From a virus (lineage: Duplodnaviria; Caudoviricetes), in the IMG/VR virus record IMGVR_UViG_3300014613_000002, positions 1 to 64,000 of that record: 64,000 nt of DNA. The stretch is one strand, 5' to 3'. The position numbers and the translations under genes are program-made. This document shows positions 21,443-58,805 of this stretch, piece by piece. The notes under the pieces were generated by a model that ran no database searches, had not been told where the DNA came from, and saw only the letters and a program-made list of their open reading frames with translations. The stretch's first letter is position 1. Every line of letters begins with the position of its first letter.

Positions 21443-22114
21443 TTAGGACTTACTAGGTAAGTCTATCCTAACTAGGCCTTTGTAATCTTGTGCGAAGACA
21501 AAGATATGCCGCTTTTGCTGGTATTCGCTCATCCTATCGTAAATAGGCATAATCTGCCGATATAATTTGGAAACGCTGCTCCGTTCCAAGTCGGCGAAAA
21601 GCAGATTTGCGGGCTTGAGAAGCACTAGGTCGGAATCGAGAACATATTTGTCGCTTTGCGCCGAGCTTTGTGAGGAGAATATTAATGTCAGTTTCCGCTT
21701 GTGCCGAACCATAGGAATCAGCTTTTCCAGTTGTTGCACTAGTATGTTGTAGTAGTCACGACTTCCCATATACACTGGCAAATCGTCACACAGAAGGGTT
21801 GAATATGGTGGAGGCTCAGTATCCAATTGCTCCAGCTTCAGTTCAGTTACCCAGCTTGGGGGTGTTTGCTCTGGGAAAATGGCATAGGTTGGCTTGCCTA
21901 TAATTTCAGCCAACCTTAATATAGTGACTGTTTTCCCAATGCCCCGCCTCCCTATAACTAGAATCACTGAGCCATCCTTATGCCTCAGTTTGATTATCGG
22001 CGCAATCTCGCCAAGCTCAGGAATCTGGGGCTTTTCTTCCTCTCCTTTATCTTTGCCAAACAGATATTGGTAGGCAAGCCCAAGGACAAAGTCTCCGATT
22101 GTTGGTTTGGTCAT
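21443..22114 (-). CDS. FtsK/HerA-superfamily (A32/P9-like) genome packaging ATPase
   Basis: Walker A GRRGIGKT, Walker B LLCDD, Arg finger RH, SSQ motif; end of the structural region. Confidence 0.85.
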   Translation of the reverse strand: MTKPTIGDFVLGLAYQYLFGKDKGEEEKPQIPELGEIAPIIKLRHKDGSVILVIGRRGIGKTVTILRLAEIIGKPTYAIFPEQTPPSWVTELKLEQLDTEPPPYSTLLCDDLPVYMGSRDYYNILVQQLEKLIPMVRHKRKLTLIFSSQSSAQSDKYVLDSDLVLLKPANLLFADLERSSVSKLYRQIMPIYDRMSEYQQKRHIFVFAQDYKGLVRIDLPSKS

Positions 22115-22755
22115 TTTATCTTTTGAGCGATAGTGCTCTCGCTTAATCTTTCTGTTAGTATTCTAACTTGTGTTTTCAGTAGCCTTATTTCCTTTTCTTG
22201 CTTCTTTAAGTCTCTCTTCAAATAGCATATAGATAAGTGCTCTGCTTGGATTGGGAATAACTCTAGATTTTCTATTCGGTTATCATCTTTAATACCATTC
22301 TTGTGGTGAACAACTTCGTGTTTTTCTAAACACCTGCCTAAGTGTTGTGCTACTATTAGCCTATGTTCACCTACCCAACCACTCTTGTCTGCTATATTGT
22401 AAAATGGGTTGTCTGAATAAATATGAATATAAGTATAGTATCCAGGTTTGCTCTTTCTTCCACCTTTCCATCCTGGATGTTTTTCTCCTTTTAGTGGGTA
22501 CGGATGTTTTTGAAAAGCAAGTTTTGTTGCCTCACTATGGGTTCGTCGAGGTATTTTAAATCTCCACAACCATGTAAATACTGTTCCCTCAACAACACCT
22601 TTAAGTTCACCAATTTCTCTAGCTGATAGTTGCTTATCCCAGTAAAGGGAATAGAGTTCACTTTTATCAACTTTAGCCTCAACACCTCTTCTAAGTGTAG
22701 CTTGCCTAATATTCTCCTTAGCTATAGCTGATAACTTGTATCCTTTTGGTGGCAT
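22111..22755 (-). CDS. HNH homing endonuclease (HNH_3)
   Basis: EHRLIVAQHLGR...VVHHKNGIKDDNRIENL. Confidence 0.9.
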   Translation of the reverse strand: MPPKGYKLSAIAKENIRQATLRRGVEAKVDKSELYSLYWDKQLSAREIGELKGVVEGTVFTWLWRFKIPRRTHSEATKLAFQKHPYPLKGEKHPGWKGGRKSKPGYYTYIHIYSDNPFYNIADKSGWVGEHRLIVAQHLGRCLEKHEVVHHKNGIKDDNRIENLELFPIQAEHLSICYLKRDLKKQEKEIRLLKTQVRILTERLSESTIAQKIK

Positions 22756-23138: not shown

Positions 23139-23270
23139 TTAGCGTCTGCTGCGCTTTCGCCTTCTGGGATTTCTCCTCATCTTAGCAATGTGCTTCATCC
23201 AAAGCTTCCTCTTTGCTGACTTCGGGGGGCCGATTTTCCCATATTTGACTCTTGGTTTCCTTTTAGCCAT
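23139..23270 (-). CDS. 43-aa Arg/Lys-rich peptide containing RRNP (below cutoff)
   Basis: GGAGG SD; MAKRKPRVKYGKIGPPKSAKRKLWMKHIAKMRRNPRRRKRSRR. Confidence 0.75.
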   Translation of the reverse strand: MAKRKPRVKYGKIGPPKSAKRKLWMKHIAKMRRNPRRRKRSRR

Positions 23271-23721
23271 GATATACCTCCTTACTAAATAGTTCTTCCT
23301 GATACGGACTTAGCTTGCTTAATTCTACCCATTTCTCCTTCATCCGATTTCGCTTCAGTTGCCGAAGTTGCTGGTAGCATACTTCCTTATCATGCTTGCA
23401 CCATTTATTAGAGGGCAAGTCCAAATACCCTCGTAAAATTACTGCTTCTTGTTTTTTAGTAGTCAGGAAAGGAATTATGCTATCTAGGACATCGCTTATT
23501 AGTTGCTTTTTGTATATCCTCCAGCCCCAACAATTCTCTCTTATTTGCATACTACCCTTAGCTATATTGCCTTGTAACCAAGACATAAGTAATGGGTCTC
23601 CACACACGAAAATGCAGGGTTTGTAATGTACATGCGTTGCCTCACCATATTTACTAATATAGAGCGAGCCATCAGCATCAGTTACGCCAGCAAGATAAGC
23701 CCATTTAGCATCGTTAGTCAC
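23263..23721 (-). CDS. single-motif LAGLIDADG homing endonuclease
   Basis: WAYLAGVTDADGSLYI; PFLTTKKQEA. Confidence 0.9.
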   Translation of the reverse strand: MTNDAKWAYLAGVTDADGSLYISKYGEATHVHYKPCIFVCGDPLLMSWLQGNIAKGSMQIRENCWGWRIYKKQLISDVLDSIIPFLTTKKQEAVILRGYLDLPSNKWCKHDKEVCYQQLRQLKRNRMKEKWVELSKLSPYQEELFSKEVYHG

Positions 23722-23771
23722 TAAATCTACCCTACCTCATAGCCCATTTTAGACATTGTGTTCCTCAGTCT

Positions 23772-23846
23772 TTACCTTCTCCTCGGCATCTTGCAGCGGA
23801 CTCTCTTACCCTTGACCTTGCGGAAGTAGTATTTTCGCTTTGCCAT
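23772..23846 (-). CDS. 24-aa basic peptide (below cutoff)
   Basis: GGAGGTG SD; MAKRKYYFRKVKGKRVRCKMPRRR. Confidence 0.65.
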   Translation of the reverse strand: MAKRKYYFRKVKGKRVRCKMPRRR

Positions 23847-23880
23847 TTAATTCACCTCCTGAGATACTTTCTATTACCTT

Positions 23881-23994
23881 TTACCTTCTGGGCTTCTTTC
23901 GTCTGTAACCACGGACGGTAATCCTCTTGCCCTTGCGAACATAGGAATAGCCCTTCACGCCCACTGCTCCTCTACTTCGCTTCCTTTTAGCCAT
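23881..23994 (-). CDS. 37-aa basic beta-hairpin peptide (below cutoff)
   Basis: GGAGG SD; MAKRKRSRGAVGVKGYSYVRKGKRITVRGYRRKKPRR. Confidence 0.75.
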   Translation of the reverse strand: MAKRKRSRGAVGVKGYSYVRKGKRITVRGYRRKKPRR

Positions 23995-24004
23995 TTTTAA
24001 CCTC

Positions 24005-24589
24005 CTATATTTTATTTCCTAACAAGTTATTCTTATGAGATTTTCTATTTGGTCTTTTCCGAGTATAAGCAGGTGAACTTATAGTTACACCACTCTGACG
24101 AGTGTAAACACAAGCTCTAACTTTAACTGCTGTTCCTCTCTTATGTCCTTTTCTCTTATGTTGGTGGATTGGTATAACTATTTCAGATTCTTCCTTAGTA
24201 TATATGGTAGCTAATTTAGATACCTCTTTTGCTTGTTCTGGTATACTCGATTCTGATATTAAGGATAGTTGTTTATTTGCAGAATACATAATTATTCCAA
24301 GTTTTGGCAAGAATGGTAAAAATTTATTTAGTTCAGGAATATAGCTATCATCAATAACTAAATACGATTTATAACCATTGATTAACCCCTCTAAACATTG
24401 CATTAGACCTTGCCGTAGCTCACTATAGCTAATTAGTTCAGGCTTAATCTCATATACAGACACAATTTCATCATTAAGGAAAGCTAAATCAGGTCTCCAG
24501 TGTGAATTAGTTACTCTCACCCTCGTATAATTTTGGCTATTGAGCCAACCTACTAGTGTAAGCTCTACCTCAGAATGTGTTAGTGGCAC
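24005..24589 (-). CDS. PD-(D/E)xK nuclease-like protein with basic C-terminal tail
   Basis: RPDL...VYEIK...GLMQC; tail resembles neighbouring basic peptides. Confidence 0.7.
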   Translation of the reverse strand: MPLTHSEVELTLVGWLNSQNYTRVRVTNSHWRPDLAFLNDEIVSVYEIKPELISYSELRQGLMQCLEGLINGYKSYLVIDDSYIPELNKFLPFLPKLGIIMYSANKQLSLISESSIPEQAKEVSKLATIYTKEESEIVIPIHQHKRKGHKRGTAVKVRACVYTRQSGVTISSPAYTRKRPNRKSHKNNLLGNKI

Positions 24590-24696
24590 TAACTTCTCCT
24601 AGAACGCCGTTTGCGAAGGTAACTTTTAACATGAATTAGCTTACCTTTTCTACGCATAGTATATTCCTTAATCTTAGTTCTCCGTGCTTTAGCCAT
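24589..24696 (-). CDS. 35-aa basic beta-hairpin peptide (below cutoff)
   Basis: AAGGAG SD; MAKARRTKIKEYTMRRKGKLIHVKSYLRKRRSRRS. Confidence 0.7.
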   Translation of the reverse strand: MAKARRTKIKEYTMRRKGKLIHVKSYLRKRRSRRS

Positions 24697-24730
24697 TAGC
24701 TCACTCCTTCTATGTTTACTTTCATATTTA

Positions 24731-24759
24731 ATGATAACATAACCACTGAGCTATGTCAA
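24731..24759 (-). promoter_or_regulatory. sigma70 promoter, extended -10
   Basis: TTGACA-17-TGn-TATCAT on minus strand. Confidence 0.75.
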
Positions 24760-24801
24760 ATTATACTATGCTTAAATTTTAGCTCGTCTTATAATCTATA
24801 A

Positions 24802-25902
24802 CTACAGCCAACCTCTCCTTTTAGCTTCAACAGGACTAACTCCTCTCTTTCTCTTTCCCAAATATAGCTCTCCAGGCAAAAGTGGGTTGCCAGCCTCATT
24901 CAGAGGCACACCATTAGAACTCCTGACATAAGCACTAGGATTAGCTACTACTGGTGCAAAGCCAGAAGGCAGCCTGCGCTCCTTTCTAAAGGCTTCTCTC
25001 TGTGCTGGAGTCCAGCGCCACCAAATTCCACTGGCGATTCGGGCAAGTCTTGCCTTAGTCGCCTTCGGATAAGAAGCTCTCAGACCTGGCAGCATTTTGG
25101 CGAACCATTCACGAGGTGGGCGGGTTTCTTTCCCTTCTGGGTTAGCCATAGCTCTTGCTGGGACTCCAGCTCTTTTGAGGCTTGCACAAGTTTCGTGATA
25201 AACTCTGCCTTTGTAGCGAACCCCACCAGCGTGAACGGGTTCTCCGCAATATTCGCATGTTCCATATCCACCAGCTCTTTTCCTAGCTGCCCAAGTTCGC
25301 CTTGAGACTTCAGGACGAGTTATGCCATCTAGGTGACCGTATTTAACTGTCCTTGAGCTAGGATTATACTTTACCCAAGCAATAGAACCAGCAGGAATTC
25401 TGTGTATAACCTTTAGTTTATATCCTCTACTTTCAAGCTCTTTCTTGAGTTCAGAATACTCTTCTGGTTTAGCTGGTTTCCCTTTATAGTAGTAATCCAT
25501 AGATGCTTCACCATGTTGCCCTATGTGTTGATATGCCATTACCATACCCCAGTTTACAGGAACATCTGGTAGAAAGGCAGTAATGATATCATTAACCTTC
25601 TTAAAAACTACTCTATCCAATTTTGGATTCAATGCTCTTGCCCCATAAAACCTGTAAGCATCTCTTGGTTCTCCTCTCATAGCCCGCCTTGGGTTTCTTC
25701 CAATATGTCTAGGTTCTAAACCTATGCTAAAAGCCTCATAGCAACCTTTGTGCCAGGCTTTTCCTTGTGCACTTACTCCCCTAGCCCAAACTGGCTCCTT
25801 GCAGAAAAAGCAGATACCTTTATAGGCTCTCTCTCTTCTCCTTCTTTGCCATACAGCTCTAGATATTTTCGCTCTAGCTTCTCCTCGTAATACTGGATTC
25901 AT
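24802..25902 (-). CDS. basic NP-punctuated virion core polyprotein candidate
   Basis: 7 Asn-Pro motifs; two CxxC...HxxC zinc modules. Confidence 0.8.
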   Translation of the reverse strand: MNPVLRGEARAKISRAVWQRRRRERAYKGICFFCKEPVWARGVSAQGKAWHKGCYEAFSIGLEPRHIGRNPRRAMRGEPRDAYRFYGARALNPKLDRVVFKKVNDIITAFLPDVPVNWGMVMAYQHIGQHGEASMDYYYKGKPAKPEEYSELKKELESRGYKLKVIHRIPAGSIAWVKYNPSSRTVKYGHLDGITRPEVSRRTWAARKRAGGYGTCEYCGEPVHAGGVRYKGRVYHETCASLKRAGVPARAMANPEGKETRPPREWFAKMLPGLRASYPKATKARLARIASGIWWRWTPAQREAFRKERRLPSGFAPVVANPSAYVRSSNGVPLNEAGNPLLPGELYLGKRKRGVSPVEAKRRGWL

Positions 25903-25917
25903 TTTTCACCTCCTACA

Positions 25918-26121
25918 TTATTTCTTTCTTAAAACCCAAAGCAACAGCCCAACTCCTCCACCAACACCTAGAACCCACTTCCAGTTAGCTGTTAACCAAG
26001 TAGTTATATCGCCAACCTCAAATGGGTTGCCAATCCCACTAACTGGTAGCCGTTCTCCAGTTTCCCCACACTGGCTACATTGTTGGTATTGTGCTTCGTC
26101 TGTGACCTGTCTTACTGACAT
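25918..26121 (-). CDS. small C-terminal-TM virion membrane protein
   Basis: CSQC; GNP; TM followed by RKK. Confidence 0.7.
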   Translation of the reverse strand: MSVRQVTDEAQYQQCSQCGETGERLPVSGIGNPFEVGDITTWLTANWKWVLGVGGGVGLLLWVLRKK

Positions 26122-26132
26122 AATTCACCTCC

Positions 26133-27170
26133 TTAGAATTCTCTTACATCTCGACTAACAAATGCTTTCCTACATTTAGAACACCAGTAATAGGGCATAC
26201 CATGCTTGCTGAGATGATGCATTTCCATAAGCCTACCACAATGCGGACACTTCGCTCTAGGATTCTTGATACTTTTACTCCTTATCCTCTTCTTCCAAAG
26301 AACATACCACTTGCCACTAGGAACAGATGGATGTGGTTGAAACTCGATAGTTATTCGTGTCTTATAACCTTCGTCTGCAAGCTTCTTGGCGTATCTTTCT
26401 GCGTCATCTCTTTGGGTATATTCCCAATGTTTTCTAAATCGCTCATGATTGAAAATTCTTGTTTTCATCTGATAAAGCGTCTTAGGTTTTGGATTCCTCA
26501 TATTACCTCCTCTTGGATTCTTTTTGTCATAATGCCACTCTATAGATTTCTTGGTAGGGCGACCATTACTATAAAAAAATTTATCTAATTCCTTTTCTGT
26601 TCCCACTACTGCTCTTTTACCATCTGCTGATATTTCAAAAAATAAACCTTTTTTATCAGCGTATCTATCTGCCTCTTTTACACTATTAAAAAACTTTAAT
26701 GGATTCTTCACCCCCAGTATCCTCTTGACTGCCATACCTGAAGCAGCTAGGCCTGCCCCAAAGCCCAAACCTGTCACCATTCCTTCAAGCAAGGGGTTTA
26801 TCTCTTCATCAGTGTATTTGTTGAGAGCTTCCGTAGCTTCGATTAAACTGACTTTATCAGCATGACTTTCAATCTCCTTAGTATAAGTTCTTGCACCTTC
26901 AATATAACTTTTGTAATGTTCCAGTTCGTGTCTAACTGTTTGGTAAAATTCGTGAAAAGCTCTTATCTCTGAATATCTCTTTAGCCTTTCAATAAAACTA
27001 GGTGAAATGTAAATACAAAGATTCTTAGTACTAAACGCTCCACTTGCTCCAGCTATTTCCTTAAACAAAATAGGAATAGGTTTGAATCCATAGCTCCTAT
27101 AGAAACTATTAGCTATATCATGAGCTACATTAATTGAACTCACTCCTGTAGTTAACTGTTGTGCAATCAT
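26133..27170 (-). CDS. NP-punctuated protein with N-terminal zincin (HExxH) domain
   Basis: HELEH; 5 NP motifs; short hydrophobic segment; C-terminal CPHC..CSKC. Confidence 0.75.
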   Translation of the reverse strand: MIAQQLTTGVSSINVAHDIANSFYRSYGFKPIPILFKEIAGASGAFSTKNLCIYISPSFIERLKRYSEIRAFHEFYQTVRHELEHYKSYIEGARTYTKEIESHADKVSLIEATEALNKYTDEEINPLLEGMVTGLGFGAGLAASGMAVKRILGVKNPLKFFNSVKEADRYADKKGLFFEISADGKRAVVGTEKELDKFFYSNGRPTKKSIEWHYDKKNPRGGNMRNPKPKTLYQMKTRIFNHERFRKHWEYTQRDDAERYAKKLADEGYKTRITIEFQPHPSVPSGKWYVLWKKRIRSKSIKNPRAKCPHCGRLMEMHHLSKHGMPYYWCSKCRKAFVSRDVREF

Positions 27171-27919
27171 ATCATTAGCCCATACTTTTTATAGAATCTC
27201 AGTTTCTTTGGGAATGGCCAATCAAGACCTGGAGGTCTAGTTTTTTCTAGCTCTCTAATTACAGATTTAGGAAACTTCCGAATTGTTAGCATCTCAGATG
27301 GAGCTAAAATTCTAACTCTTGGTTCTGTAACTACTGGATTCTTTCTATACCATTTCCTAAACTCTGCTGGGTGAGCACGCTGATAATGCCTCCTGAGCCA
27401 AGCCATTCTCTCTGGAAACTTAGGATGCAGTAATAGGGATTTTGGGACACAACGACCGCAAATTGAGCAACAAAACCTTTCCAGTGGATTAGCAGTAAAA
27501 TACGCTCCAGCCTGCCCTCTCCAATATTCGGCAGCTTCAAGGTGGCCAGACTTCAGGTCTCCCCTATACCTTTTTAGCGACTCCAATGCTTCTGGGTGAA
27601 CTTTAACTGACACTTTAGTTGGATTATAAACCTTAGCTATCTTTCCCATTCCTACCGACCTCCCGTAATAGAATGAACTTTTAATCGGGTCATAACTGTA
27701 CCTCCTAGATATGTCGTATTGAACATTGGCTAATTTCTTGATTTGGTCTTTTTCAGATTTGGTTAGTGGATTTCCCTTTATAGTTCCCCATTCTATTGCT
27801 CTCTTGGCATTTTCCAAGGAACCGTATGTTGCTATATACTTCCCTGATTTGAATACAAGAAATTTGTCTTCTGATTTTACTATTGTATATCCGTAGTATT
27901 TATAAATTTTCTCTTTCAT
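27167..27919 (-). CDS. basic NP-punctuated protein
   Basis: 4 NP motifs; CSIC..H..H zinc finger. Confidence 0.75.
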   Translation of the reverse strand: MKEKIYKYYGYTIVKSEDKFLVFKSGKYIATYGSLENAKRAIEWGTIKGNPLTKSEKDQIKKLANVQYDISRRYSYDPIKSSFYYGRSVGMGKIAKVYNPTKVSVKVHPEALESLKRYRGDLKSGHLEAAEYWRGQAGAYFTANPLERFCCSICGRCVPKSLLLHPKFPERMAWLRRHYQRAHPAEFRKWYRKNPVVTEPRVRILAPSEMLTIRKFPKSVIRELEKTRPPGLDWPFPKKLRFYKKYGLMI

Positions 27920-27937
27920 AGCCCAAACCTTCTCTTA

Positions 27938-28951
27938 TCAAACTTCTACCGTAATTATTTCAAACGGCATAGGCACATAAGGTTCTAGTTCTCTAATATT
28001 AAATTGTCGAATAAGTTCTATAATTTCATCCTCACTTTTATTCATTAGGTTGTGTTCCCATATAATAAGACAATCATAATCAATAGAATGATAAGCATCT
28101 ATTTTCCCAGGTTCGCTTGCAGTAAATCTGCATCCAGTTACTTCAGCACTATGCCAATAATCACCAAAAAACTCTATAACTTTCCTTTTAGATTTATGAG
28201 TAAAATCAGGAATAAAAGTTTTGCCATCAACCTTTAACTGAATTTTGCCGTTACCAGTATATTCATACTCACTAGGGCAAGCTTCATCAATAATTTTGCC
28301 AAGCTGTAATTCGGATTTATTAGGTTTATCACGAACTAATCGCAAAAAAGTTCCTATACGCTTCCTTTTATACTCAGGATTTGCCCAAAGTTCCCTTGTC
28401 CTTTTATGAGCAGCTTCCACATTTGGTTTCCAGCCAGAAGCAATCAATTCTAACTTCTTAATTGAGACCTTATTTCGTTCCTCAGGATTACTAAACCTCT
28501 GTATCGCTGCAATAGATTGCTTTTTCTTTTCTTCCTCAGTTCTAACTCTGTAACTATTATGAGCAGTATTCTTTCGCATTGGAATATCAAAATATCTTAA
28601 ATAGTAAGCAGCCATACAACCTAACTTTTCATCAATTGCCCTAGTGCTTAATTTTTGGTTAATATACAGTTCTCTCAATAATTCTTCAGTAATACCTTTT
28701 TCTCTTAATTGTCTCATTTTTGTGACATGAAAACACTCGGGCATAGCTCGTCTAGGCATCTTATTCTCATCCATAAACTTCCAAATATTAGCTCCTGGGA
28801 ACATAGCACATATTGTATCCACACTCAACTTATCCTCATAATATAGTTTCGCTATTTTCTCTTTGGTTATACTATAATAACCTAGTTTTTCTTCATATTG
28901 TTTTCTAAGTCTTTTAGTATTAGCTTCTCTGTGTTCTTTTGTCCAACTCAT
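27938..28951 (-). CDS. Vsr/DUF559-like homing endonuclease
   Basis: PDF..IEFFGDYWH..DCLIIWEH. Confidence 0.85.
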   Translation of the reverse strand: MSWTKEHREANTKRLRKQYEEKLGYYSITKEKIAKLYYEDKLSVDTICAMFPGANIWKFMDENKMPRRAMPECFHVTKMRQLREKGITEELLRELYINQKLSTRAIDEKLGCMAAYYLRYFDIPMRKNTAHNSYRVRTEEEKKKQSIAAIQRFSNPEERNKVSIKKLELIASGWKPNVEAAHKRTRELWANPEYKRKRIGTFLRLVRDKPNKSELQLGKIIDEACPSEYEYTGNGKIQLKVDGKTFIPDFTHKSKRKVIEFFGDYWHSAEVTGCRFTASEPGKIDAYHSIDYDCLIIWEHNLMNKSEDEIIELIRQFNIRELEPYVPMPFEIITVEV

Positions 28952-29327
28952 TTAACGCTTCCTGTATATATTCCTGTGGCTTGCGAAGTTTCCTTCTACT
29001 TATCAAATCTTTATAAATTCTAGGACTCATTGTATCCTTATTAGGATAAGTTGAGAATCCTACTTTGTCCATATACTCGTTGTGATTCCACTTAAAAGCA
29101 TAATGCCCCCCCAATTCATGAGCTAGGCGTTTATGTCTTTCTTGAGAGCTTTGCTTCATCCACTCTCTCGTAACTGTAATTTTTGGCATTTGTCCGTCTA
29201 GAGAAATCCAAATGTCTGGGTATGTTTTCTTAGAGTCTGAAAATTCTAGCTTCAGCATTCGAACACCAAAATATTTCATTCCTTTTCGCAGGAATTTTCT
29301 ATCTTCTGGGCTTAGTAATTTTGACAT
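28920..29327 (-). CDS. hypothetical protein, possible zincin-like
   Basis: LAHELGGH...HN motif. Confidence 0.6.
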   Translation of the reverse strand: MSKLLSPEDRKFLRKGMKYFGVRMLKLEFSDSKKTYPDIWISLDGQMPKITVTREWMKQSSQERHKRLAHELGGHYAFKWNHNEYMDKVGFSTYPNKDTMSPRIYKDLISRRKLRKPQEYIQEALNELDKRTQRS

Positions 29328-29386
29328 CTCACAATCTTTCTGTTATAATACCTATTGCATTTGAAGGCTTCGCCTTCTAAATGCCC

Positions 29387-30412
29387 TCAAACGGGAGAGC
29401 CCTCAGCTTGCTGGGGGTTTTCCTCAATAAAGCAATCATCATTTTTGTTATTAAAATCCTTAATAATTCTGATAAGTTCTTCTTCTGTTTTCTCTTTTAA
29501 TTCGTGCTCCCATATAACTAGGCAACTGAAACCAAATCCAGCATATCTATTAATTTTATCTTGAGGATTTTCTCCTTCGTGGAAATAATCTCCAAACATC
29601 TCAATTACCTTTTTCTGACTATTACAGTTGGTGAAATCAGGATGCAAATTGGCGATTGTTACAGTTCCATCTCCTGTGAATTTATATTGGTTTGGGCAAG
29701 CAATATTTATCAAATTCAATAATAAAGATTCTGGTTTATTCGGATGAGAGCATAGTTTACTAAGAACCTTCTTAGAGTATTCTGGGTTTTGCCAATTCTC
29801 TTTCTGATGCTTGGATATTTTTGCTGCTCCTTTTATGGCATTTTCTTTTCCAGGCTTTGATATTCCTTTATGAGCTATTCCAATCTTTCGAGAGCGTTCT
29901 GTATTTGAGCTTACTAGTTTATTTCTTTCCTCGGTATGATGTTTCCCATAAAATCCGTTTCTTTCCCCTAGCTGTTCTTCCCTATTACTTCTTCTTGGCA
30001 TATCCCATTCATTCATTTTTTGACTTATAATACTTCCAGATGTTTGCAAGACTTTGGCAAATTTGCACATTGGTAAGCCTAACTCCCAATAATAGTGCTG
30101 AATATCTTGCGAAGTAAAATCTCTATTCAGAATGGGTGGTCTACCAAGTGGTTTCTTTTTCTTGTGAGTTATAACTTTACGGGGGATTTCTCTATATTTA
30201 TTAGTTAAATTGAATGATTCCAATCGAGTTCTTCTAGGTATATTATATCTTTTCATAAAACTCCAAACTGAGTTATCATTCGTTCCATAAAGAAATCCTA
30301 TATCAGCTAAAGTTAATTCCTGTATCCAGTAAAGATTCTCAACCGTAGCTTTATCTAGCTTAACTTCACGCTTGCCTTCAGATATATTATTACACCATTC
30401 AGTAGAACGCAT
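29387..30412 (-). CDS. Vsr/DUF559-like homing endonuclease with NUMOD3
   Basis: NGFYGKHHTEE; PDF..IEMFGDYFH..CLVIWEHEL. Confidence 0.85.
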   Translation of the reverse strand: MRSTEWCNNISEGKREVKLDKATVENLYWIQELTLADIGFLYGTNDNSVWSFMKRYNIPRRTRLESFNLTNKYREIPRKVITHKKKKPLGRPPILNRDFTSQDIQHYYWELGLPMCKFAKVLQTSGSIISQKMNEWDMPRRSNREEQLGERNGFYGKHHTEERNKLVSSNTERSRKIGIAHKGISKPGKENAIKGAAKISKHQKENWQNPEYSKKVLSKLCSHPNKPESLLLNLINIACPNQYKFTGDGTVTIANLHPDFTNCNSQKKVIEMFGDYFHEGENPQDKINRYAGFGFSCLVIWEHELKEKTEEELIRIIKDFNNKNDDCFIEENPQQAEGSPV

Positions 30413-30480
30413 TTTCTTGTTATAAGGTCCTCTTTTTATTTTAATGTTCTGAAGTTTGCTTATATCCTTTCTTGCACATT

Positions 30481-31305
30481 TCAGCCTTCAATGCCCCTTT
30501 CAGTGAATTTCGGACTCGACTTGTCCTCAATGACGAACAATCCCTTGCCATTCTTCCCTGTAGCGAGTATCGGTTTCTCTGGCAGCATCCTGGAACCAGT
30601 GTCCCCGAGCTTGTGAATGAAGGTCGTCCTTTTGCGCCTGGAGCTGCCATACGGCTGATATTCTATCGCTGTCAATCTACCAATGGATACAAGCTGTTCT
30701 CCCTTGTTCGGAACTCTAACCCTGACTTTTCGCACTTGGGGCGGATTTCCATGAAAAGATTCATAGAGTCCCTTGGGCTTGCCAAAGAGAGTATCAAATA
30801 TAATAGGGTTTTCTATTGCACCAGTTCTAAGATTTATCCATCCATTTACTTTGTTACCTATAATAACTCTTACCTGTTCACAAGTTCTTGATTTACGACA
30901 GTGAGTTATTGCTGCATTTTTATCCTCAAAATCAAGATGGTCATACTTATACTCAAGAAAAGGTTCATCTGGATAGTAGTGATATGCTCGATATTTAATT
31001 TTACTTGGATTCATTCTCGCTTTCACTGTTTCTATATGAGGGCAAGTCCTAACTCCTCCTTTCTTGAATATCCAGGCTGGGCAAGAACATAAGAGGTTTC
31101 CTTGCTCATCTGCCTTAACAGTATAGGTTTTGCTTGGGTCACTCTTGCTCCTGAAAGTAGTTACTGTTCGATAGACCTTCTTTGGGTTAGCAGTCCTAAA
31201 TCCACTTTTCCATTCCCTAGCAGCTATCCTCATAGCATCTTGAGGTAAGTAGCCCATACGGACTAATGTCTTGATTCTTTTCTTTATGTAGTCTCGATAT
31301 GTCAT
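30481..31305 (-). CDS. NP-punctuated protein with SWIM zinc finger and conserved C-terminal virion domain
   Basis: CSCPAW...TCPHI; YESFHG...LVSIGRLTAIEY...FIH...RGI. Confidence 0.75.
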   Translation of the reverse strand: MTYRDYIKKRIKTLVRMGYLPQDAMRIAAREWKSGFRTANPKKVYRTVTTFRSKSDPSKTYTVKADEQGNLLCSCPAWIFKKGGVRTCPHIETVKARMNPSKIKYRAYHYYPDEPFLEYKYDHLDFEDKNAAITHCRKSRTCEQVRVIIGNKVNGWINLRTGAIENPIIFDTLFGKPKGLYESFHGNPPQVRKVRVRVPNKGEQLVSIGRLTAIEYQPYGSSRRKRTTFIHKLGDTGSRMLPEKPILATGKNGKGLFVIEDKSSPKFTERGIEG

Positions 31306-31914
31306 CTAAATTTTTCCTCTAGTAAGCTTGCCAGCCTTGGTCTTGGGGATTGCATTTTTCATCCTCATTACTTTTTTATAGAGAGCTACAGTTGCTTGAT
31401 GTTCAGCCCTACCTGTAGGGTCGGACACCCAATCACGAGTAATATCAACTGCTGCATCTAGGATATCTATAGCTTCATCCAGTCGTTCTCTTGGGATAAA
31501 TAATGTATTTCCCTTTATAGTTACCCAATCATAACCCACATCAAAGAAACGGAAAGGAATGACTATATCTCTTTGTTTAGCTGATAAATATACTTTTATA
31601 ACCTCTGGGGTAACAGGACGAATTGGATTCCTGTAAGCATAGCTCCTAAAGCAACCCTGGCAAACATAAGCTCTCTTGCTGTCAAGCCTAACCTGAACAG
31701 CTTCCTCCCATGGAATCCAAGAACCGCAATCTATGCAGACTGGGTTCGCAACTTTCTTGATATAAATAGCCACCATTCTCCTAGCTTTTCTCCCAATGTA
31801 GGTAAAGGCTCTGACATTAGGTCTGCCGACCTGTCTGACCCAGAATGCCAACACTCTATCCTTGGCAGAATAAGGGATAGTTTCAATAAGGGAATATCCT
31901 TTTATTTTTAACAT
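31306..31914 (-). CDS. NP-punctuated protein with zinc finger
   Basis: ANP-CIDC...CQGC-RNP. Confidence 0.7.
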   Translation of the reverse strand: MLKIKGYSLIETIPYSAKDRVLAFWVRQVGRPNVRAFTYIGRKARRMVAIYIKKVANPVCIDCGSWIPWEEAVQVRLDSKRAYVCQGCFRSYAYRNPIRPVTPEVIKVYLSAKQRDIVIPFRFFDVGYDWVTIKGNTLFIPRERLDEAIDILDAAVDITRDWVSDPTGRAEHQATVALYKKVMRMKNAIPKTKAGKLTRGKI

Positions 31915-31915
31915 T

Positions 31916-32245
31916 CTATAGTCCTGGTGGTTTAATTCCAGACTTTGGGAAAATTCTTACATCACCACTAAATGTTCCAGGTTCTTCAGCATCGAACTCA
32001 AAGCTGTGTTCCGATTCATCAGTTTCCACTCCACCTACTGATAAGTAGGTATGTTGGTCTCCTGCTCTATCTATTAGATTCCCGCCAGACCAAACTTCAG
32101 CGAGAGTATAATACATTGAACCATAGAACAAACCCTGAACATCTACTGAATAATTAACAGTCATTCTTACAGTATCACCCACCCCATATTCTGATTTATC
32201 AAAGGTAATCACTATTGGGTTGTGTAGCTTAAATCCTGCTGCCAT
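31916..32245 (-). CDS. single Ig-like beta-sandwich protein
   Basis: FDKSEYGVGDTVRMTVNY...FEFDAEEPGTFSGDVRI. Confidence 0.65.
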   Translation of the reverse strand: MAAGFKLHNPIVITFDKSEYGVGDTVRMTVNYSVDVQGLFYGSMYYTLAEVWSGGNLIDRAGDQHTYLSVGGVETDESEHSFEFDAEEPGTFSGDVRIFPKSGIKPPGL

Positions 32246-37503: not shown

Positions 37504-37746
37504 TTACTTTTTTGTCAACTCAATGTAGGTATGGACTGTTCCTTCTAGTTTAGCCAGGTTAACACTGACTTCAGATACCTTTCCCACTAGACCGTCTACC
37601 TTTTCCACTAGGCCGTCATCAACTTTTCCTTCTAAGTTTTTAACTTTTTGAGTCAGCCCACCATAGGTATATACCTTGGTGTAAACCCATCCGAAGACAT
37701 TCAGTAGTGTGACACCACCTAGTGCTATCCAACTTGTTAAGTCCAT
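37504..37746 (-). CDS. N-terminal TM + coiled-coil protein (holin/hemolysin-like layout)
   Basis: TM then heptad repeats. Confidence 0.65.
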   Translation of the reverse strand: MDLTSWIALGGVTLLNVFGWVYTKVYTYGGLTQKVKNLEGKVDDGLVEKVDGLVGKVSEVSVNLAKLEGTVHTYIELTKK

Positions 37747-38726
37747 TGTATTGCCTCCTTATAGCTTTTATCCAGTCCTAATTTTTGGGTTACATTAGAA
37801 AATCTATTGGCTATAGTTGTCGTGTTGCTTCCTGCAAAAAGCAAGCCCACAACCATGTTATCTTCAGTTAAAATTATTGAACCGCTGTCTCCACCCTCTG
37901 AAACAGGCCCCATAACGAATTGGTCAGTAAATATCGCAGTTTCGCCATTCATACCAACATTGACGGTAGCATCGACCGCTGTTATTTCACCGTGAGTTAA
38001 ACCAGTTGTCCGCCCGGATTTCTTAATCTTCATTCCAACTTCTGGCCCAATTACCTCTTTGGGTAATCCAACTTCTAGAATTGAACTCAGTATATTCTTA
38101 GCATTATTGGGTTTGGCTAGGGCGCAGTCAACCAAATTGTCATTATCAGCCATAGGAAATAATCTTGTCCTTCTGCCAAATGCCTTAGCGGTAAAGTTAA
38201 ATATCTTGGCGATAAAGTTAGCGGCTGGGCAGAAGCTGGACATCCACATATTGATAGGAACAAATTCAGCCAATTTCCCTATTTCGCAGTCGCCCATCTC
38301 CGTTGTAATATCATAGGGGCCTGGCTGCAGAATGGCATCTCCTATCTGCCCTTTGTTGCAGGCAGCGAGCACATGATTATTTGATAAAATATACTTTTCA
38401 CCATTCTTTTTAACAGTCATGCCCAAGGTTCCAGCAGTTATATCTTTATGTCCAATGGAAACACCACCTGGAGCTGGCCTCCACTTATCAGTTCTTTCCT
38501 TGTCAGCATCCAGCAGCCTTATCTCGCCTACCTCAACTATGTCTGTTTCCTTTCCCTTTATCTTCCTTGGGACAATATCCCGTTTCCTTAATAGCTCTAA
38601 AGGCAGCTTCTTAACTACACCGATGACTATGGCATCTCTGCCAGTGTCTACTCCACTGGTTATCTTTTTCCCTCTACCAACGAGAACCACATTGCTTTTT
38701 CTGAGTAGCTTTTTATCCCAATTCAT
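37737..38726 (-). CDS. chymotrypsin-like serine protease with prodomain
   Basis: GTLG..LSNNHVL (His), VDCAL (Asp), GDSGS (Ser). Confidence 0.9.
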   Translation of the reverse strand: MNWDKKLLRKSNVVLVGRGKKITSGVDTGRDAIVIGVVKKLPLELLRKRDIVPRKIKGKETDIVEVGEIRLLDADKERTDKWRPAPGGVSIGHKDITAGTLGMTVKKNGEKYILSNNHVLAACNKGQIGDAILQPGPYDITTEMGDCEIGKLAEFVPINMWMSSFCPAANFIAKIFNFTAKAFGRRTRLFPMADNDNLVDCALAKPNNAKNILSSILEVGLPKEVIGPEVGMKIKKSGRTTGLTHGEITAVDATVNVGMNGETAIFTDQFVMGPVSEGGDSGSIILTEDNMVVGLLFAGSNTTTIANRFSNVTQKLGLDKSYKEAIQWT

Positions 38727-39217: not shown

Positions 39218-40063
39218 TTACTTCATTTTGTTAATCCCAAGTGCGCCATCAAAGATAGATGCTTTTGGCTCATGACCTTTCCCAACTCCCACATGGTCGC
39301 CTTGGTCTACCACCGTTCCAGCATCATAATCTACTTTGAGAGCATGGCCTATTCGGTCTACGAATGTTATGTAAGCGGTCTGGTACATTGGTGGATACCC
39401 CAAATCTCCAGCACAAAAGATATGCCCATTCTGAGGTTCGAGAATATACCAGCTAGTCAGGTCATGCCAATCGCCACCCACATAAAATATGTTGTAGGCA
39501 TGATTGCCTTTGCTCACTGAATCTCCACGAAGAATACATCCAGCACCCAATCCCTTGTAAGATGCCATTGCTGTGTCGGCGGAGAATCCACCACACATCA
39601 TATCGTGGTATTCTGAAATCTTAGTCCAAGAGCCAGCATTCCCCTCAAACTCATCAATTCCATCTATCTTGAGCTTGATTAGATATAGTGGTATATCCTC
39701 CGTGTGTGGAAAGTGTGGTTCTTTGTAGGTCATATCTATTCCATACTCAGTCCTTATGTTGCTGCGAATTACTCCTAAGTCCTTACCACCAGCAATACCA
39801 TCACCATCCTCGTCATAGTCCACTTCTTCGATGGGAAGATAAGGTGCTGATTGGTCAATGAAAGGCAAGTGGAGTATCTTCTGGTAGGTCTTGCCATAGA
39901 CTTTAGCAAACAGAACAAAATCAAATATATTTACCTTCCCATCATTGTTGAAATCTGCCCTTGAATCAAACTTCTTGTCTCCCTTCTTGGAGTTATAGCA
40001 AGAGGCAAACCTCACAAAATCATGAATGCCTATCTTGCCATCGTTGTCAAAGTCGCCCTTCAT
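39218..40063 (-). CDS. dockerin-like domain + papain/transglutaminase-like cysteine protease
   Basis: GDFDNDG..ADFNNDG; MCGGFS..HAYN..LEPQ (Cys-His-Glu). Confidence 0.7.
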   Translation of the reverse strand: MKGDFDNDGKIGIHDFVRFASCYNSKKGDKKFDSRADFNNDGKVNIFDFVLFAKVYGKTYQKILHLPFIDQSAPYLPIEEVDYDEDGDGIAGGKDLGVIRSNIRTEYGIDMTYKEPHFPHTEDIPLYLIKLKIDGIDEFEGNAGSWTKISEYHDMMCGGFSADTAMASYKGLGAGCILRGDSVSKGNHAYNIFYVGGDWHDLTSWYILEPQNGHIFCAGDLGYPPMYQTAYITFVDRIGHALKVDYDAGTVVDQGDHVGVGKGHEPKASIFDGALGINKMK

Positions 40064-56018: not shown

Positions 56019-56498
56019 TTACACGGCCTTTGGCCATGTGTCCACTATGTTCTTTGGCTGGGCTGGATAGCTGCCCACACCTGGATGTCCTCTGCCTAGC
56101 ATTCTTGGCCCAGACCTGCCGATTTCAATATCTGTGAAAGCAGCCAAGCCTTGAGACAACGCCCCCGCCATTCCTCCAGCAACAGCCGCCCTAGCTCCAC
56201 TTACACCTCCGAGTGATTTGGCAGCAAGGCCAACTAAGCCAGCACTACCAAGAGCTAACAGGAATTTGCCGAACTTCTGTCCCCTAGTTGCAGCATCCTT
56301 GATTATCATTCCAGGCAGCATTATCGCCCCAGCGAATCCGCCAAGGGCAAGACCAGCATCCATCGGGCTAATTCCCTGCCAGAATTCTGCGAGACCTTTT
56401 GGCATAGCCAAAGCAGCAGCAGGGTTTCTCCTACTCCTACTCCTTCGGCGCTTCCTGCGGTAAGGATTCTCCTGCAAAAGTATTTCTGAATAACCCAT
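56019..56498 (-). CDS. major virion membrane protein candidate
   Basis: ENPYRRKRRRSRSRRNP basic head followed by ~3 Gly/Ala-rich TM segments; directly upstream of the MCP. Confidence 0.75.
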   Translation of the reverse strand: MGYSEILLQENPYRRKRRRSRSRRNPAAALAMPKGLAEFWQGISPMDAGLALGGFAGAIMLPGMIIKDAATRGQKFGKFLLALGSAGLVGLAAKSLGGVSGARAAVAGGMAGALSQGLAAFTDIEIGRSGPRMLGRGHPGVGSYPAQPKNIVDTWPKAV

Positions 56499-57309: not shown

Positions 57310-58374
57310 TCATTTCTTATTAAATAATTGAATTTGCTTTATTAGTTCATCGTCTGTCTTATTTCGCAAATCGTGCTCCCAGATAACTAAACAATCGAAA
57401 CCTAACGAGTTATAAGCCATTATGCGCCCTAATTCACTCCTGCGCCAATTATCATTCGCATTATGAAAATAATCACCAAAAGCTTCAATAAGCTTCTTTT
57501 TCCCATTGACATTGGCGAAGTCAGGATTCAATCCATTTATAATGAGGGAGGCATCTCCGGTATACTTATATTCATTAGGGCAAGCAACTTTAATTAAATG
57601 TAGTATCTTTGATTCAAACTTATTGGGCCTTAATCCTGTAGCTTCCCTCGACTTTTTGGCCATCTTTTCTATGTGCAAGTTTTTCTCTTCGGCAGACAAA
57701 GAAGCCCAATATCTTTTTAATGCTTTCTGCCTTTTAGACTTGTTTAACTTTAGTGCTTTTGATATATTAGCACAATGCTCAACAGAGAGTGGTTTACCTA
57801 GATGAGCAATGGACATTTTTGCTTTAGAAGACATGCTATATTTTCTCCCTTTTGCCCAAGGTCGAGGTCGTTTGGCAAATTCAGTGAGCTGTTCTCGAAA
57901 ATATAAATTTTTCCAAAGGTTCTTCATACGCTTAGATGTAGACTCTTTGCGTTCTGGCAGAGAAGCTGACATCTTAAATATATTAATCATTTTCTGTCTA
58001 TAATTTTTATCTTGCCATCTATTCTTGGCAATACTAGACATTTTATCTTTAGCTTCTTTTGTATGGTGGCTACCTTTACCAAAACTGTTTAAGCGTTGCT
58101 TCCTTTTAGCTTCTTCACTATATAGACTATTCCTCATTATTTGCTCATAACTTGGATTTTTCCAAAGTTCTTTTAATGAATTAGATATTTTTTGCTTAGT
58201 TATATTGCTAACTTTATGGTCTTTCAGACTATTGCTAACTTTTCTAGAAATGGATTGTTTATATTTACTATCTGCCCAGCGTTTTCGGGAAGCCTCGCCA
58301 ATTTTCTGTTTACTTTCCTCGGTATAAGATTTCATAACGTAATATCTACAATCTTTGAGTATTCTGTTCTCCAC
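57310..58374 (-). CDS. NUMOD3-repeat + Vsr/DUF559-like homing endonuclease
   Basis: HTKEAKDKMS repeats; PDF..IEAFGDYFH..DCLVIWEH. Confidence 0.85.
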   Translation of the reverse strand: MENRILKDCRYYVMKSYTEESKQKIGEASRKRWADSKYKQSISRKVSNSLKDHKVSNITKQKISNSLKELWKNPSYEQIMRNSLYSEEAKRKQRLNSFGKGSHHTKEAKDKMSSIAKNRWQDKNYRQKMINIFKMSASLPERKESTSKRMKNLWKNLYFREQLTEFAKRPRPWAKGRKYSMSSKAKMSIAHLGKPLSVEHCANISKALKLNKSKRQKALKRYWASLSAEEKNLHIEKMAKKSREATGLRPNKFESKILHLIKVACPNEYKYTGDASLIINGLNPDFANVNGKKKLIEAFGDYFHNANDNWRRSELGRIMAYNSLGFDCLVIWEHDLRNKTDDELIKQIQLFNKK

Positions 58375-58805
58375 CCAATGGGCCTTTCTGAAGTTAAATC
58401 AAGAAAAATCCAATCATTTATTTCTGGAGAAAATACTTGAGCTATGGCATGGTCGTATTCCCCATCAAGATTGCAGTCCAAAATTGAGATTTTGGTTTCA
58501 TGACCAATTGAACCCAACAAACTTGAAATAAGCAAAGCTGCTGATTCACAATCCTCGTGCATTTTGCTAGTAGCTTGATACTGCTCTAAGAGCTTCCTCG
58601 GGGAAGTAAGTAGCTCCCTTCCGTGCGGGTCAGCGACATATTCAAAATTGGATTTCGCCCAGTTAAAAATCGAGGCTATCTCATCGCCTTCTTGTCTGGC
58701 TGAAATAGCCGCATCTCTTACCTCAGAACAACGAATGCCGTCATTGAGCATTCTCCTAAGTTCTGTTTTGATTGTCTCCAAACTTGCTTCGGGAATAATT
58801 TTCAT
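58332..58805 (-). CDS. transglutaminase-like cysteine protease/hydrolase
   Basis: IFNWAKSNFEYVADP..EDCES..HAIAQV..WIFLD (Cys-His-Asp). Confidence 0.85.
   Translation of the reverse strand: MKIIPEASLETIKTELRRMLNDGIRCSEVRDAAISARQEGDEIASIFNWAKSNFEYVADPHGRELLTSPRKLLEQYQATSKMHEDCESAALLISSLLGSIGHETKISILDCNLDGEYDHAIAQVFSPEINDWIFLDLTSERPIGWRTEYSKIVDITL

Follow-up and report, generated by a model that had tools for sequence, protein, structure and literature searches.

Why should a run of small basic proteins in a phage-like virus be punctuated by a single dipeptide, asparagine-proline (NP)? The question is raised by the genes at positions 23139-32245 of IMG/VR virus record IMGVR_UViG_3300014613_000002 (Duplodnaviria; Caudoviricetes); the stretch analysed here, called the window, is the first 64 kb (64,000 nucleotides) of this complete 74,930-bp record, which has direct terminal repeats. 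The original prediction, made from the letters of the window, was that these proteins are virion core polyproteins cut at NP, either autocatalytically or by one of the encoded proteases, and that NP might in addition serve as a shuffling junction. This work shows that NP is a seam under selection at the protein level, where autonomous modules join and are exchanged in a clade of groundwater viruses. Whether the seams are also cut by an enzyme is, judged from sequence patterns, close to an even question.

NP enrichment and the level at which it is selected

The NP genes lie on the minus strand, downstream of a large structural block. Seven NPs occur in the 366-amino-acid (aa) product of 24802-25902, where its own composition predicts 0.84, and five in the 345-aa product of 26133-27170 (0.57 expected); none of 5000 shuffles of either sequence reaches these counts. 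For the 250-aa protein of 27167-27919 (4 against 0.41), the 274-aa protein of 30481-31305 (4 against 0.68) and the 202-aa protein of 31306-31914 (2 against 0.27), the fraction of 5000 shuffles that does so is 0.001, 0.003 and 0.027, respectively. Pooled, these five focal proteins hold 22 NPs against 2.77 expected (7.9-fold), NP is the sole dipeptide enriched more than 4-fold in them, and 22 of their 46 asparagines are followed by proline. Three further proteins have one NP each (31916-32245, 25918-26121 and 23139-23270), which is not significant for any of them individually (p 0.06-0.14). Every NP count given in the original prediction was correct, and the comparison with shuffled sequences that it called for yields a stronger enrichment than it had stated. 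In a pooled set of 76 proteins, composed of relatives found by a profile search and of P0006-P0009 from other searches, NP occurs 242 times against 34 expected; in unrelated viral loci it stands at about 1.3-fold.

Could this excess be a by-product of amino acid composition, of an AAYCC motif in the DNA, or of the common descent of a few repeats? The proline codon is CCA at 16 of the 22 NP sites of the window, compared with 41% genome-wide, and many of the sites are homologous, so that the counts are not independent; both facts would suit such an origin. However, composition-keeping shuffles do not reach the counts of the richest proteins, and the module families that NP flanks are unrelated to each other. 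Of 26 AAYCC pentamers, 22 fall in codon frame 0 and two each in frames 1 and 2, while the nine on the antisense strand are evenly spread over the frames and amount to no enrichment. All combinations of Asn and Pro codons are employed at NP sites, and across 12 loci these codons are chosen there as they are elsewhere (chi-square p = 0.29). The frame-0 bias, the use of all codons and the unchanged codon choice place the constraint on the protein, as had first been suggested from the variety of codons. Composition and a DNA motif were rejected as explanations on the grounds of the shuffles, the AAYCC frame and the codon use, and the by-product reading as a whole retains practically no probability.

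NP at the borders of exchangeable modules

When all proteins are divided at N|P, 347 segments result (median 51 aa), up to 16 of them per chain (up to 15 NPs), and these cluster into families of constant length, 11 of them with at least three members. The two commonest are a LIM-like CxxC..HxxC zinc (Zn) finger, present in 54 copies, and an HMG-box-like domain, present in 48; 17 copies belong to a conserved peptide of about 20 aa, '..PRDAFRYFGA..L'. Others are a helical module with 'GAAWH', Zn ribbons of three kinds, a hydrophobic glycine-zipper helix and a 'LLPGERYLG..RRGWL' tail, and the modules are found in dozens of different orders.

NP falls at the edges of these modules. Where a Zn finger has more sequence after it, NP lies 14-19 residues past the last ligand in 33 of 35 cases, and 41 of the 44 HMG-like domains that are not at a protein start have NP before them, 21 of them directly as NPRPP. 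In all, NP occupies 116 of 124 internal borders (about 94%) of the Zn-finger and HMG-like modules, and two of the exceptions are N-S. Of the ends of BLAST high-scoring segment pairs, 27-31% lie within 3 aa of NP, compared with 12% of random positions (2.3-2.5-fold, more than 20 standard deviations). Homologues of the 366-aa protein, when aligned, differ by the presence or absence of whole blocks of 20-110 residues, each bounded by NP. The NP columns of a 38-sequence alignment are conserved in 28 of 29 to 29 of 29 sequences, the ten flanking columns are 20-29% identical, and in alignment A7 N70, P71, N164 and P165 are invariant. The only residues preferred after NP are R, V, L and I.

The same units are recombined between genomes. 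In L004, a syntenic 9-kb contig, modules and gene order are as in the window but the fusions differ: the modules of the 202-aa and 274-aa proteins are joined in one protein, those of the 250-aa and 345-aa proteins in another, and NP counts are 5, 9 and 9 where about 1 is expected. In P0005 the Zn ribbon that closes the 345-aa protein of the window has been added behind the usual C-terminus '..RRGWL' by way of an extra N-P. Stand-alone small proteins correspond to the two core modules: P0039 ends '..HIGR' precisely where the fusions have NP, P0064, P0071, P0076 and P0060 begin Met-Pro, and several HMG-like stand-alones start Met-Pro-Arg-Arg-Pro-Pro, or Met-Pro and other residues followed by the Arg-Pro-Pro core. 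Since such proteins exist on their own, the NP segments are autonomous units. The view that NP falls at module borders is therefore borne out by alignment indels, by the ends of segment pairs and by border occupancy, and the suggestion of a shuffling junction holds as well, as modules are gained, lost and reshuffled at NP between related genomes; the comparison of related genomes that had been proposed as a check finds NP near-invariant and at borders while module orders vary.

One variable block of the 366-aa protein, an 88-aa insert ('..HIGQHG..KPEEYSELKKELES.GY'), has a homologue in gene 10001-10642 of L002, an unrelated high-GC phage contig without NP seams, and was probably acquired from outside the family, given this homologue in a genome that lacks seams.

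Are the seams cut?

We propose that the seams are proteolytic processing sites, and that these genes encode polyproteins from which many small DNA-binding and membrane-associated products would be released. The cut would most likely fall between Asn and Pro, because this would leave a stabilising Pro N-terminus. A cut after Pro would instead put Arg, Leu, Val or Ile at many of the new N-termini, and some of these residues are destabilising there in bacteria. The likeliest agent may be the virus-encoded zincin-like metallopeptidase of 28920-29327, which sits among NP genes in three relatives and forms the first module of one such protein. The products may pack or anchor the genome within a membrane-containing particle.

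We infer cutting because Asn is strictly used rather than any capping residue, because module borders are near-fully occupied and modules have stand-alone equivalents, because the NPs of the 366-aa protein model lie in coil between its folded domains, and because seams also occur in tandem, 0-6 residues apart. Single hydrophobic helices are found internally, with Zn-binding basic modules on both sides, an arrangement that is topologically awkward if the chain is uncut. Two further reasons are that a zincin is associated or fused, as Iyer et al. propose for polyvalent proteins (Iyer, Burroughs, Anand, de Souza and Aravind, 2017; PMC5512222), and that Asn|Pro is the scissile bond in FlhB/YscU, reovirus mu1 and RsgI (PMC3207474, PMC10328401).

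Several observations weigh against this proposal. The flanks of NP are nearly free of information (Kullback-Leibler divergence 0.07-0.39 bits), which is odd for a protease site, and NP is not avoided in the remainder of the genome (67 against 41.3 expected, 1.6-fold). Module order is partly conserved, with the Zn finger first and the HMG-like domain later, which also fits an uncut multi-domain protein. In favour of cutting, NP lies within the first eight residues of 11 of 80 proteins, nine of which have leaders of 1-5 residues (MNP, MSNP, MANP etc.), and MTNP and METNP leaders occur in further loci; by estimate, however, NP is no more frequent near N-termini than its overall density gives, so that these leaders count as a qualitative point only. 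No HExxH protein was found on the fragmentary contigs L009/L010, L014 and L016, though NP proteins are present there, so that a co-occurrence of zincin and seam is tentative. We know of no zincin that cuts before Pro with Asn at P1. Cleavage of these proteins is a reading of their sequences and not a result.

These points are partly shared by the alternative that the seam is never cut and that NP is a structural joint, an Asx-Pro turn, an N-cap or a rigid hinge, which travels with modules arranged as beads on a string. Asn-Pro is known to form turns and caps, and the AlphaFold (AF2) model of the 366-aa protein has its NPs in coil, right before helices or strands. The partly conserved module order, the mild genome-wide enrichment and the lack of demonstrated cleavage all agree with an uncut joint. 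However, DP, SP and TP cap and turn too, yet none is enriched in the focal proteins (3, 3 and 2 observed against 2.7, 4.8 and 3.8 expected), and on this ground a general N-cap or Asx-Pro preference was rejected as sufficient. What comes after NP is a helix, a strand or an extended segment alike, and the occupancy of borders together with the near-invariance of the pair goes beyond a generic linker preference. Stand-alone modules lack NP, and neither tandem seams nor tiny N-terminal leaders have an obvious structural use. A purely structural joint is a serious alternative, but on this evidence an unlikely one.

NP might otherwise be a mark that is read and not cut, the reader being a factor for packaging, docking, isomerisation or modification. 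A strictly conserved pair with free flanks is what such a reader could require, and NP is also found at N-termini and beside Arg-rich peptides. A docking signal, however, need not occupy every border or recur up to 15 times in a chain, and no candidate reader was found; we regard this explanation as very improbable.

A candidate processing enzyme

The gene 28920-29327 (minus strand) encodes a 135-aa zincin-like metallopeptidase without NP, a candidate processing enzyme, and sits between genes of NP proteins, with an inserted endonuclease-like gene on either side. H70, E71 and H82 are invariant in alignment A3, and the active site reads HExxxH in the window copy and four others and HExxHxxGxxH in relatives. 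Across the family (P0078-P0083, L004, L015 and P0026) the active site takes one of two forms, HExxHxxGxxH or HExxxHx6H, and either is conserved in its own subgroup; the HExxxH variant has been described for peptidases embedded in polyvalent proteins (PMC5512222). The AF2 model, with a predicted local distance difference test (pLDDT) score of 90, has helices (H) and strands (E) in the order H, E, E, E, H, H, in agreement with the three-stranded sheet and flanking helices of zincins. The best-matching folds all belong to zinc peptidases (abylysin, jannalysin, selecase, Wss1, HtpX, SPRTN and matrix metalloproteinases) or to YbeY, with modest scores (Z 5-7, Foldseek E 0.01-0.3). The position of the gene among NP proteins is kept in L004 and in the distant L015, and in P0026 the zincin is the first module of a 727-aa, 15-NP chain, with NP directly after it (hhalign 98%).

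Other proteases of the window had been named as possible processing enzymes. One of them, 37737-38726 (minus strand), does match a PHROG protease (5e-60), with a weak trypsin match; the other two lost this label, 58332-58805 having no match in family searches and 39218-40063 (minus strand) matching a dockerin domain only, at its N-terminus. The trypsin-like and dockerin genes lie among beta-helix spike-like genes. From its sequence and predicted fold, 28920-29327 appears to be a better candidate than any of these.

Comparison with known systems

The closest parallels are found in the polyvalent proteins of phages and conjugative elements, multi-domain proteins with embedded zincins that are predicted to process the chain (PMC5512222). 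Like these, NP chains are viral multi-domain chains of freely recombining modules with a zincin-like metallopeptidase embedded or adjacent. Polyvalent proteins are recognised by 2-15 unrelated domains in many architectures and by an embedded or associated zincin (PMC5512222); NP chains show such architectures, with the zincin part of the chain in P0026 and encoded next to NP genes in the window, L004 and L015. In contrast, that paper (PMC5512222) describes no junction motif, mentions neither 'linker' nor HMG and refers to asparagine in other contexts only. The modules differ as well: those of polyvalent proteins are mostly large enzymatic effectors, characterised as conflict effectors that are delivered at invasion, whereas NP modules are putatively DNA-binding, peptide and membrane units of 20-90 aa with strict Asn-Pro joints, and no enzymatic effector was recognised among them in Pfam, PHROG and HMG profile searches.

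The asparagine peptide lyases FlhB/YscU (MEROPS N6), reovirus mu1/aquareovirus VP5 (N7) and RsgI share the scissile dipeptide, and the original prediction had drawn on FlhB/YscU for autocleavage by Asn cyclisation. No protease would then be needed, as the Asn side chain would attack its own peptide bond. The pair is identical in all three systems, and in two of them the cut is a viral or bacterial maturation event; moreover, a chemistry that needs only N-P predicts the absence of flank specificity, and NP proteins occur on contigs where no zincin is seen. However, the known cases need a folded, strained context, with one site per protein in a conserved fold (the NPTH loop, the mu1 fold, the RsgI beta-turn); in FlhB/YscU the site lies in a four-stranded sheet with four helices (PMC3207474). 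NP chains differ in having up to 15 sites in flexible, unconserved linkers, placed by the AF2 model in coil between unrelated small domains, and no sequence or fold relation to these proteins. NPTH occurs at one of 345 NP sites and no flank is conserved, so the FlhB-type context is absent. Uncatalysed Asn-Pro cleavage is slow, and heat-driven spontaneous cleavage is unlikely because groundwater, the habitat, gives no heat. Self-cleavage by Asn cyclisation is improbable, and less likely than cutting by the zincin.

Other viruses offer functional parallels. The adenovirus core precursors pVII and pX are cut by adenain, and pp220 and pp62 of African swine fever virus are cut at Gly-Gly-X; both enzymes are cysteine proteases. 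NP chains resemble these precursors in being basic and probably DNA-associated and in their very short motif, and a virus protease acting at particle maturation is predicted here; the differences are that these are eukaryotic jelly-roll-capsid viruses with cysteine proteases, another motif and demonstrated cleavage. The picornavirus 2A StopGo element (..NPG|P) is likewise an Asn-Pro-containing mark between products of one frame, but it requires about 18 residues ending in NPGP (D(V/I)ExNPGP) as well as eukaryotic ribosomes, whereas only one of the 345 NP sites reads NPGP and the upstream flanks show no conservation. Head and ejection proteins of T4-like and giant phages are cut after Glu (L/I-x-E, S/A/G-x-E) by a prohead serine protease. 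As proposed here for NP, a short motif there marks many cuts, in proteins of the virion interior; neither a prohead-type serine protease nor the Glu motif was found here.

The proteins of the window

The 366-aa protein (24802-25902, minus strand) is a basic multi-module protein with NPs at residues 2, 70, 92, 180, 254, 321 and 339, which delimit an M-N leader, a Zn finger, the conserved peptide of about 20 aa, the 88-aa insert, a second Zn finger, the HMG-box-like domain, an 18-aa segment and the C-terminal 'LLPGE..RRGWL' module. Its AF2 model has a mean pLDDT of 67, with confident domains at about 1-68, 201-250 and 255-311 and low-confidence stretches at 69-83, 95-97, 163-200 and 312-339. All seven NPs are in coil: NP70, NP180, NP321 and NP339 are inside low-confidence stretches, NP92 and NP254 adjoin one or fall where confidence dips, and NP2 is N-terminal.

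The HMG-box-like module (residues 255-320, 24943-25140, minus strand) has NP at both ends and three helices in the AF2 model. A profile of this 'RPPxxWF..YP..GIWW' module matched HMG boxes only among PDB sequences (14 matches, best E 8e-4), and P0054, a eukaryotic multi-HMG protein, is among the profile matches. Pfam HMG_box matches seven of 12 module members (best 1.2e-5), and the window copy, at 14.8 bits, is below the gathering score of 25.4. HMG boxes are generally regarded as eukaryotic; here the HMG-box-like domain is found in a prokaryotic virus, both within chains and as stand-alone proteins of 54-100 aa (P0064, P0068, P0071 and P0076).

The 345-aa protein (26133-27170, minus strand, 5 NPs) is composed of an N-terminal 124-aa HELEH domain, the glycine-zipper hydrophobic helix, three variable segments and a C-terminal Zn ribbon. 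The HELEH domain, the second HExxH of the cluster, covers the first 125 residues (26796-27170, minus strand), with NP and the glycine-zipper helix directly after it, and is common to P0008. The motif itself and a weak SprT match (E 0.013) are all that points to a peptidase, and hhalign detected no relation to the family of the 28920-29327 zincin. The 250-aa protein (27167-27919, minus strand, 4 NPs) is the one whose modules are fused with those of the 345-aa protein in L004, in a chain of 449 aa. In the 274-aa protein (30481-31305, minus strand, 4 NPs), whose C-terminal 87-aa module is common to L004 and L009, a CxC..CxH pattern fits the SWIM label that it had been given, while profile hidden Markov models (HMMs) of Pfam and PHROG lend that label no support. 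The two NPs of the 202-aa protein (31306-31914, minus strand) stand on either side of a 39-aa CxxC..CxxC module, the part that is fused to modules of the 274-aa protein in L004.

The smaller proteins are more diverse. The 67-aa protein of 25918-26121 (minus strand, one NP) has a C-terminal membrane helix, and its L004 homologue is without NP. The 43-aa protein of 23139-23270 (minus strand) is 49% Lys+Arg, and its one NP lies between a conserved part and an extra RRRKRSRR tail; the L004 homologue ends at the NP position. In the acidic 109-aa protein of 31916-32245 (minus strand, isoelectric point (pI) 4.5), the one NP is at residue 9 (p = 0.14), and membership of this protein in the NP system is doubtful. 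Outside the cluster, the basic 159-aa protein of 56019-56498 (minus strand), in the structural region, has 2 NPs against 0.19 expected (p = 0.01); it begins with a 10-aa leader, NP, a 12-aa Arg-rich peptide and a second NP.

Two ultra-basic proteins without NP belong to the same neighbourhood, a 37-aa protein of pI 12 with a homologue in L004 (23881-23994, minus strand) and its 35-aa paralogue (24589-24696, minus strand). Together with 23139-23270 they form a set of protamine-like proteins of 35-43 aa, with homologues in L004, and two of them share 'KGY..R+GK+..V+.Y.RK', which is also the C-terminal end of the 194-aa protein of 24005-24589. These neighbouring proteins have a pI of 12 and 46-49% Lys+Arg, and the NP proteins a pI of 9.7-10.5. 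The module set looks like DNA-binding or DNA-bending proteins plus short membrane helices, to judge from composition and motifs, and the original idea of basic, DNA-condensing segments fares well: the modules are basic and look DNA-binding (HMG-box-like domains, Zn fingers and ribbons, pI 9.7-12).

Endonuclease-like genes break up the cluster (27938-28951, 29387-30412, 23263-23721 and 22111-22755, minus strand) and look like mobile insertions, because they are absent from the syntenic L004. The first two are paralogous open reading frames of 337 and 341 aa with a C-terminal '..PDF..K..IE.FGDYWH..W.H', and one of the interrupting frames is LAGLIDADG-like. HMM support was obtained for 22111-22755 only (HNH_3, 5e-13), the others having no Pfam match at E 0.01.

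Source genome and relatives

The virus is contained in groundwater metagenomes of four studies, with no RNA data set listed among the sequencing runs that hold it, and related contigs also carry groundwater sample names. No close relative was found among deposited phage genomes, either by megablast of the region or by tblastn of the 366-aa protein against a phage collection, and none of the NP proteins matched in Pfam or PHROG. Relatives came from more sensitive searches: a HMMER profile search yielded 71, and 12 further metagenome loci have the same NP pattern. A word-indexed search with 26133-27170 as query returned only two partial relatives, an IMG/VR scan with a single protein as query gave no match, and IMG/VR scans with alignments A3 and A5 gave only the distant loci L005-L008, all without NP proteins. 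In the window, the NP cluster ends beside the HNH endonuclease gene 22111-22755 and a small P-loop ATPase gene (21443-22114). The coding strand is plus over 1-21.4 kb, minus over 21.4-61.9 kb and plus again after 62 kb, and GC and AT skew flip sign at about 22000 and 62000, matching this switch.

Significance

Full-text searches of the literature returned no description of Asn-Pro seams in prokaryotic viruses, nor of relevant HMG boxes in phages. What is new here is the strict two-residue seam; modular viral polyproteins and polyvalent proteins are of a kind already known. Polyproteins are a textbook matter in RNA viruses, as in a few large DNA viruses of eukaryotes, and to our knowledge the strategy is essentially undescribed for phage-like viruses. 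The fullest form of our proposal, to which we give somewhat less than even credence, is that NP is the cut-here code of an undescribed polyprotein strategy of prokaryotic double-stranded DNA viruses, in which a zincin that accepts Pro at P1', or a linker-tolerant lyase chemistry, would free dozens of small genome-packing and membrane proteins, and in which so short a mark would let viruses swap modules. The presence of an HMG-box-like domain, alone and in chains, in a likely bacterial virus is of interest in itself.

If the seams are cut, DNA viruses of prokaryotes would have a polyprotein strategy with the shortest processing code known, possibly read by a protease of unusual Asn|Pro specificity that could be a useful tool. 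If they are uncut, a strict two-residue joint would still be a rule of protein modularity, one that explains how modules of 20-90 aa are shuffled intact. Such a rule would also give a simple parsing of hundreds of unannotated viral proteins into units.

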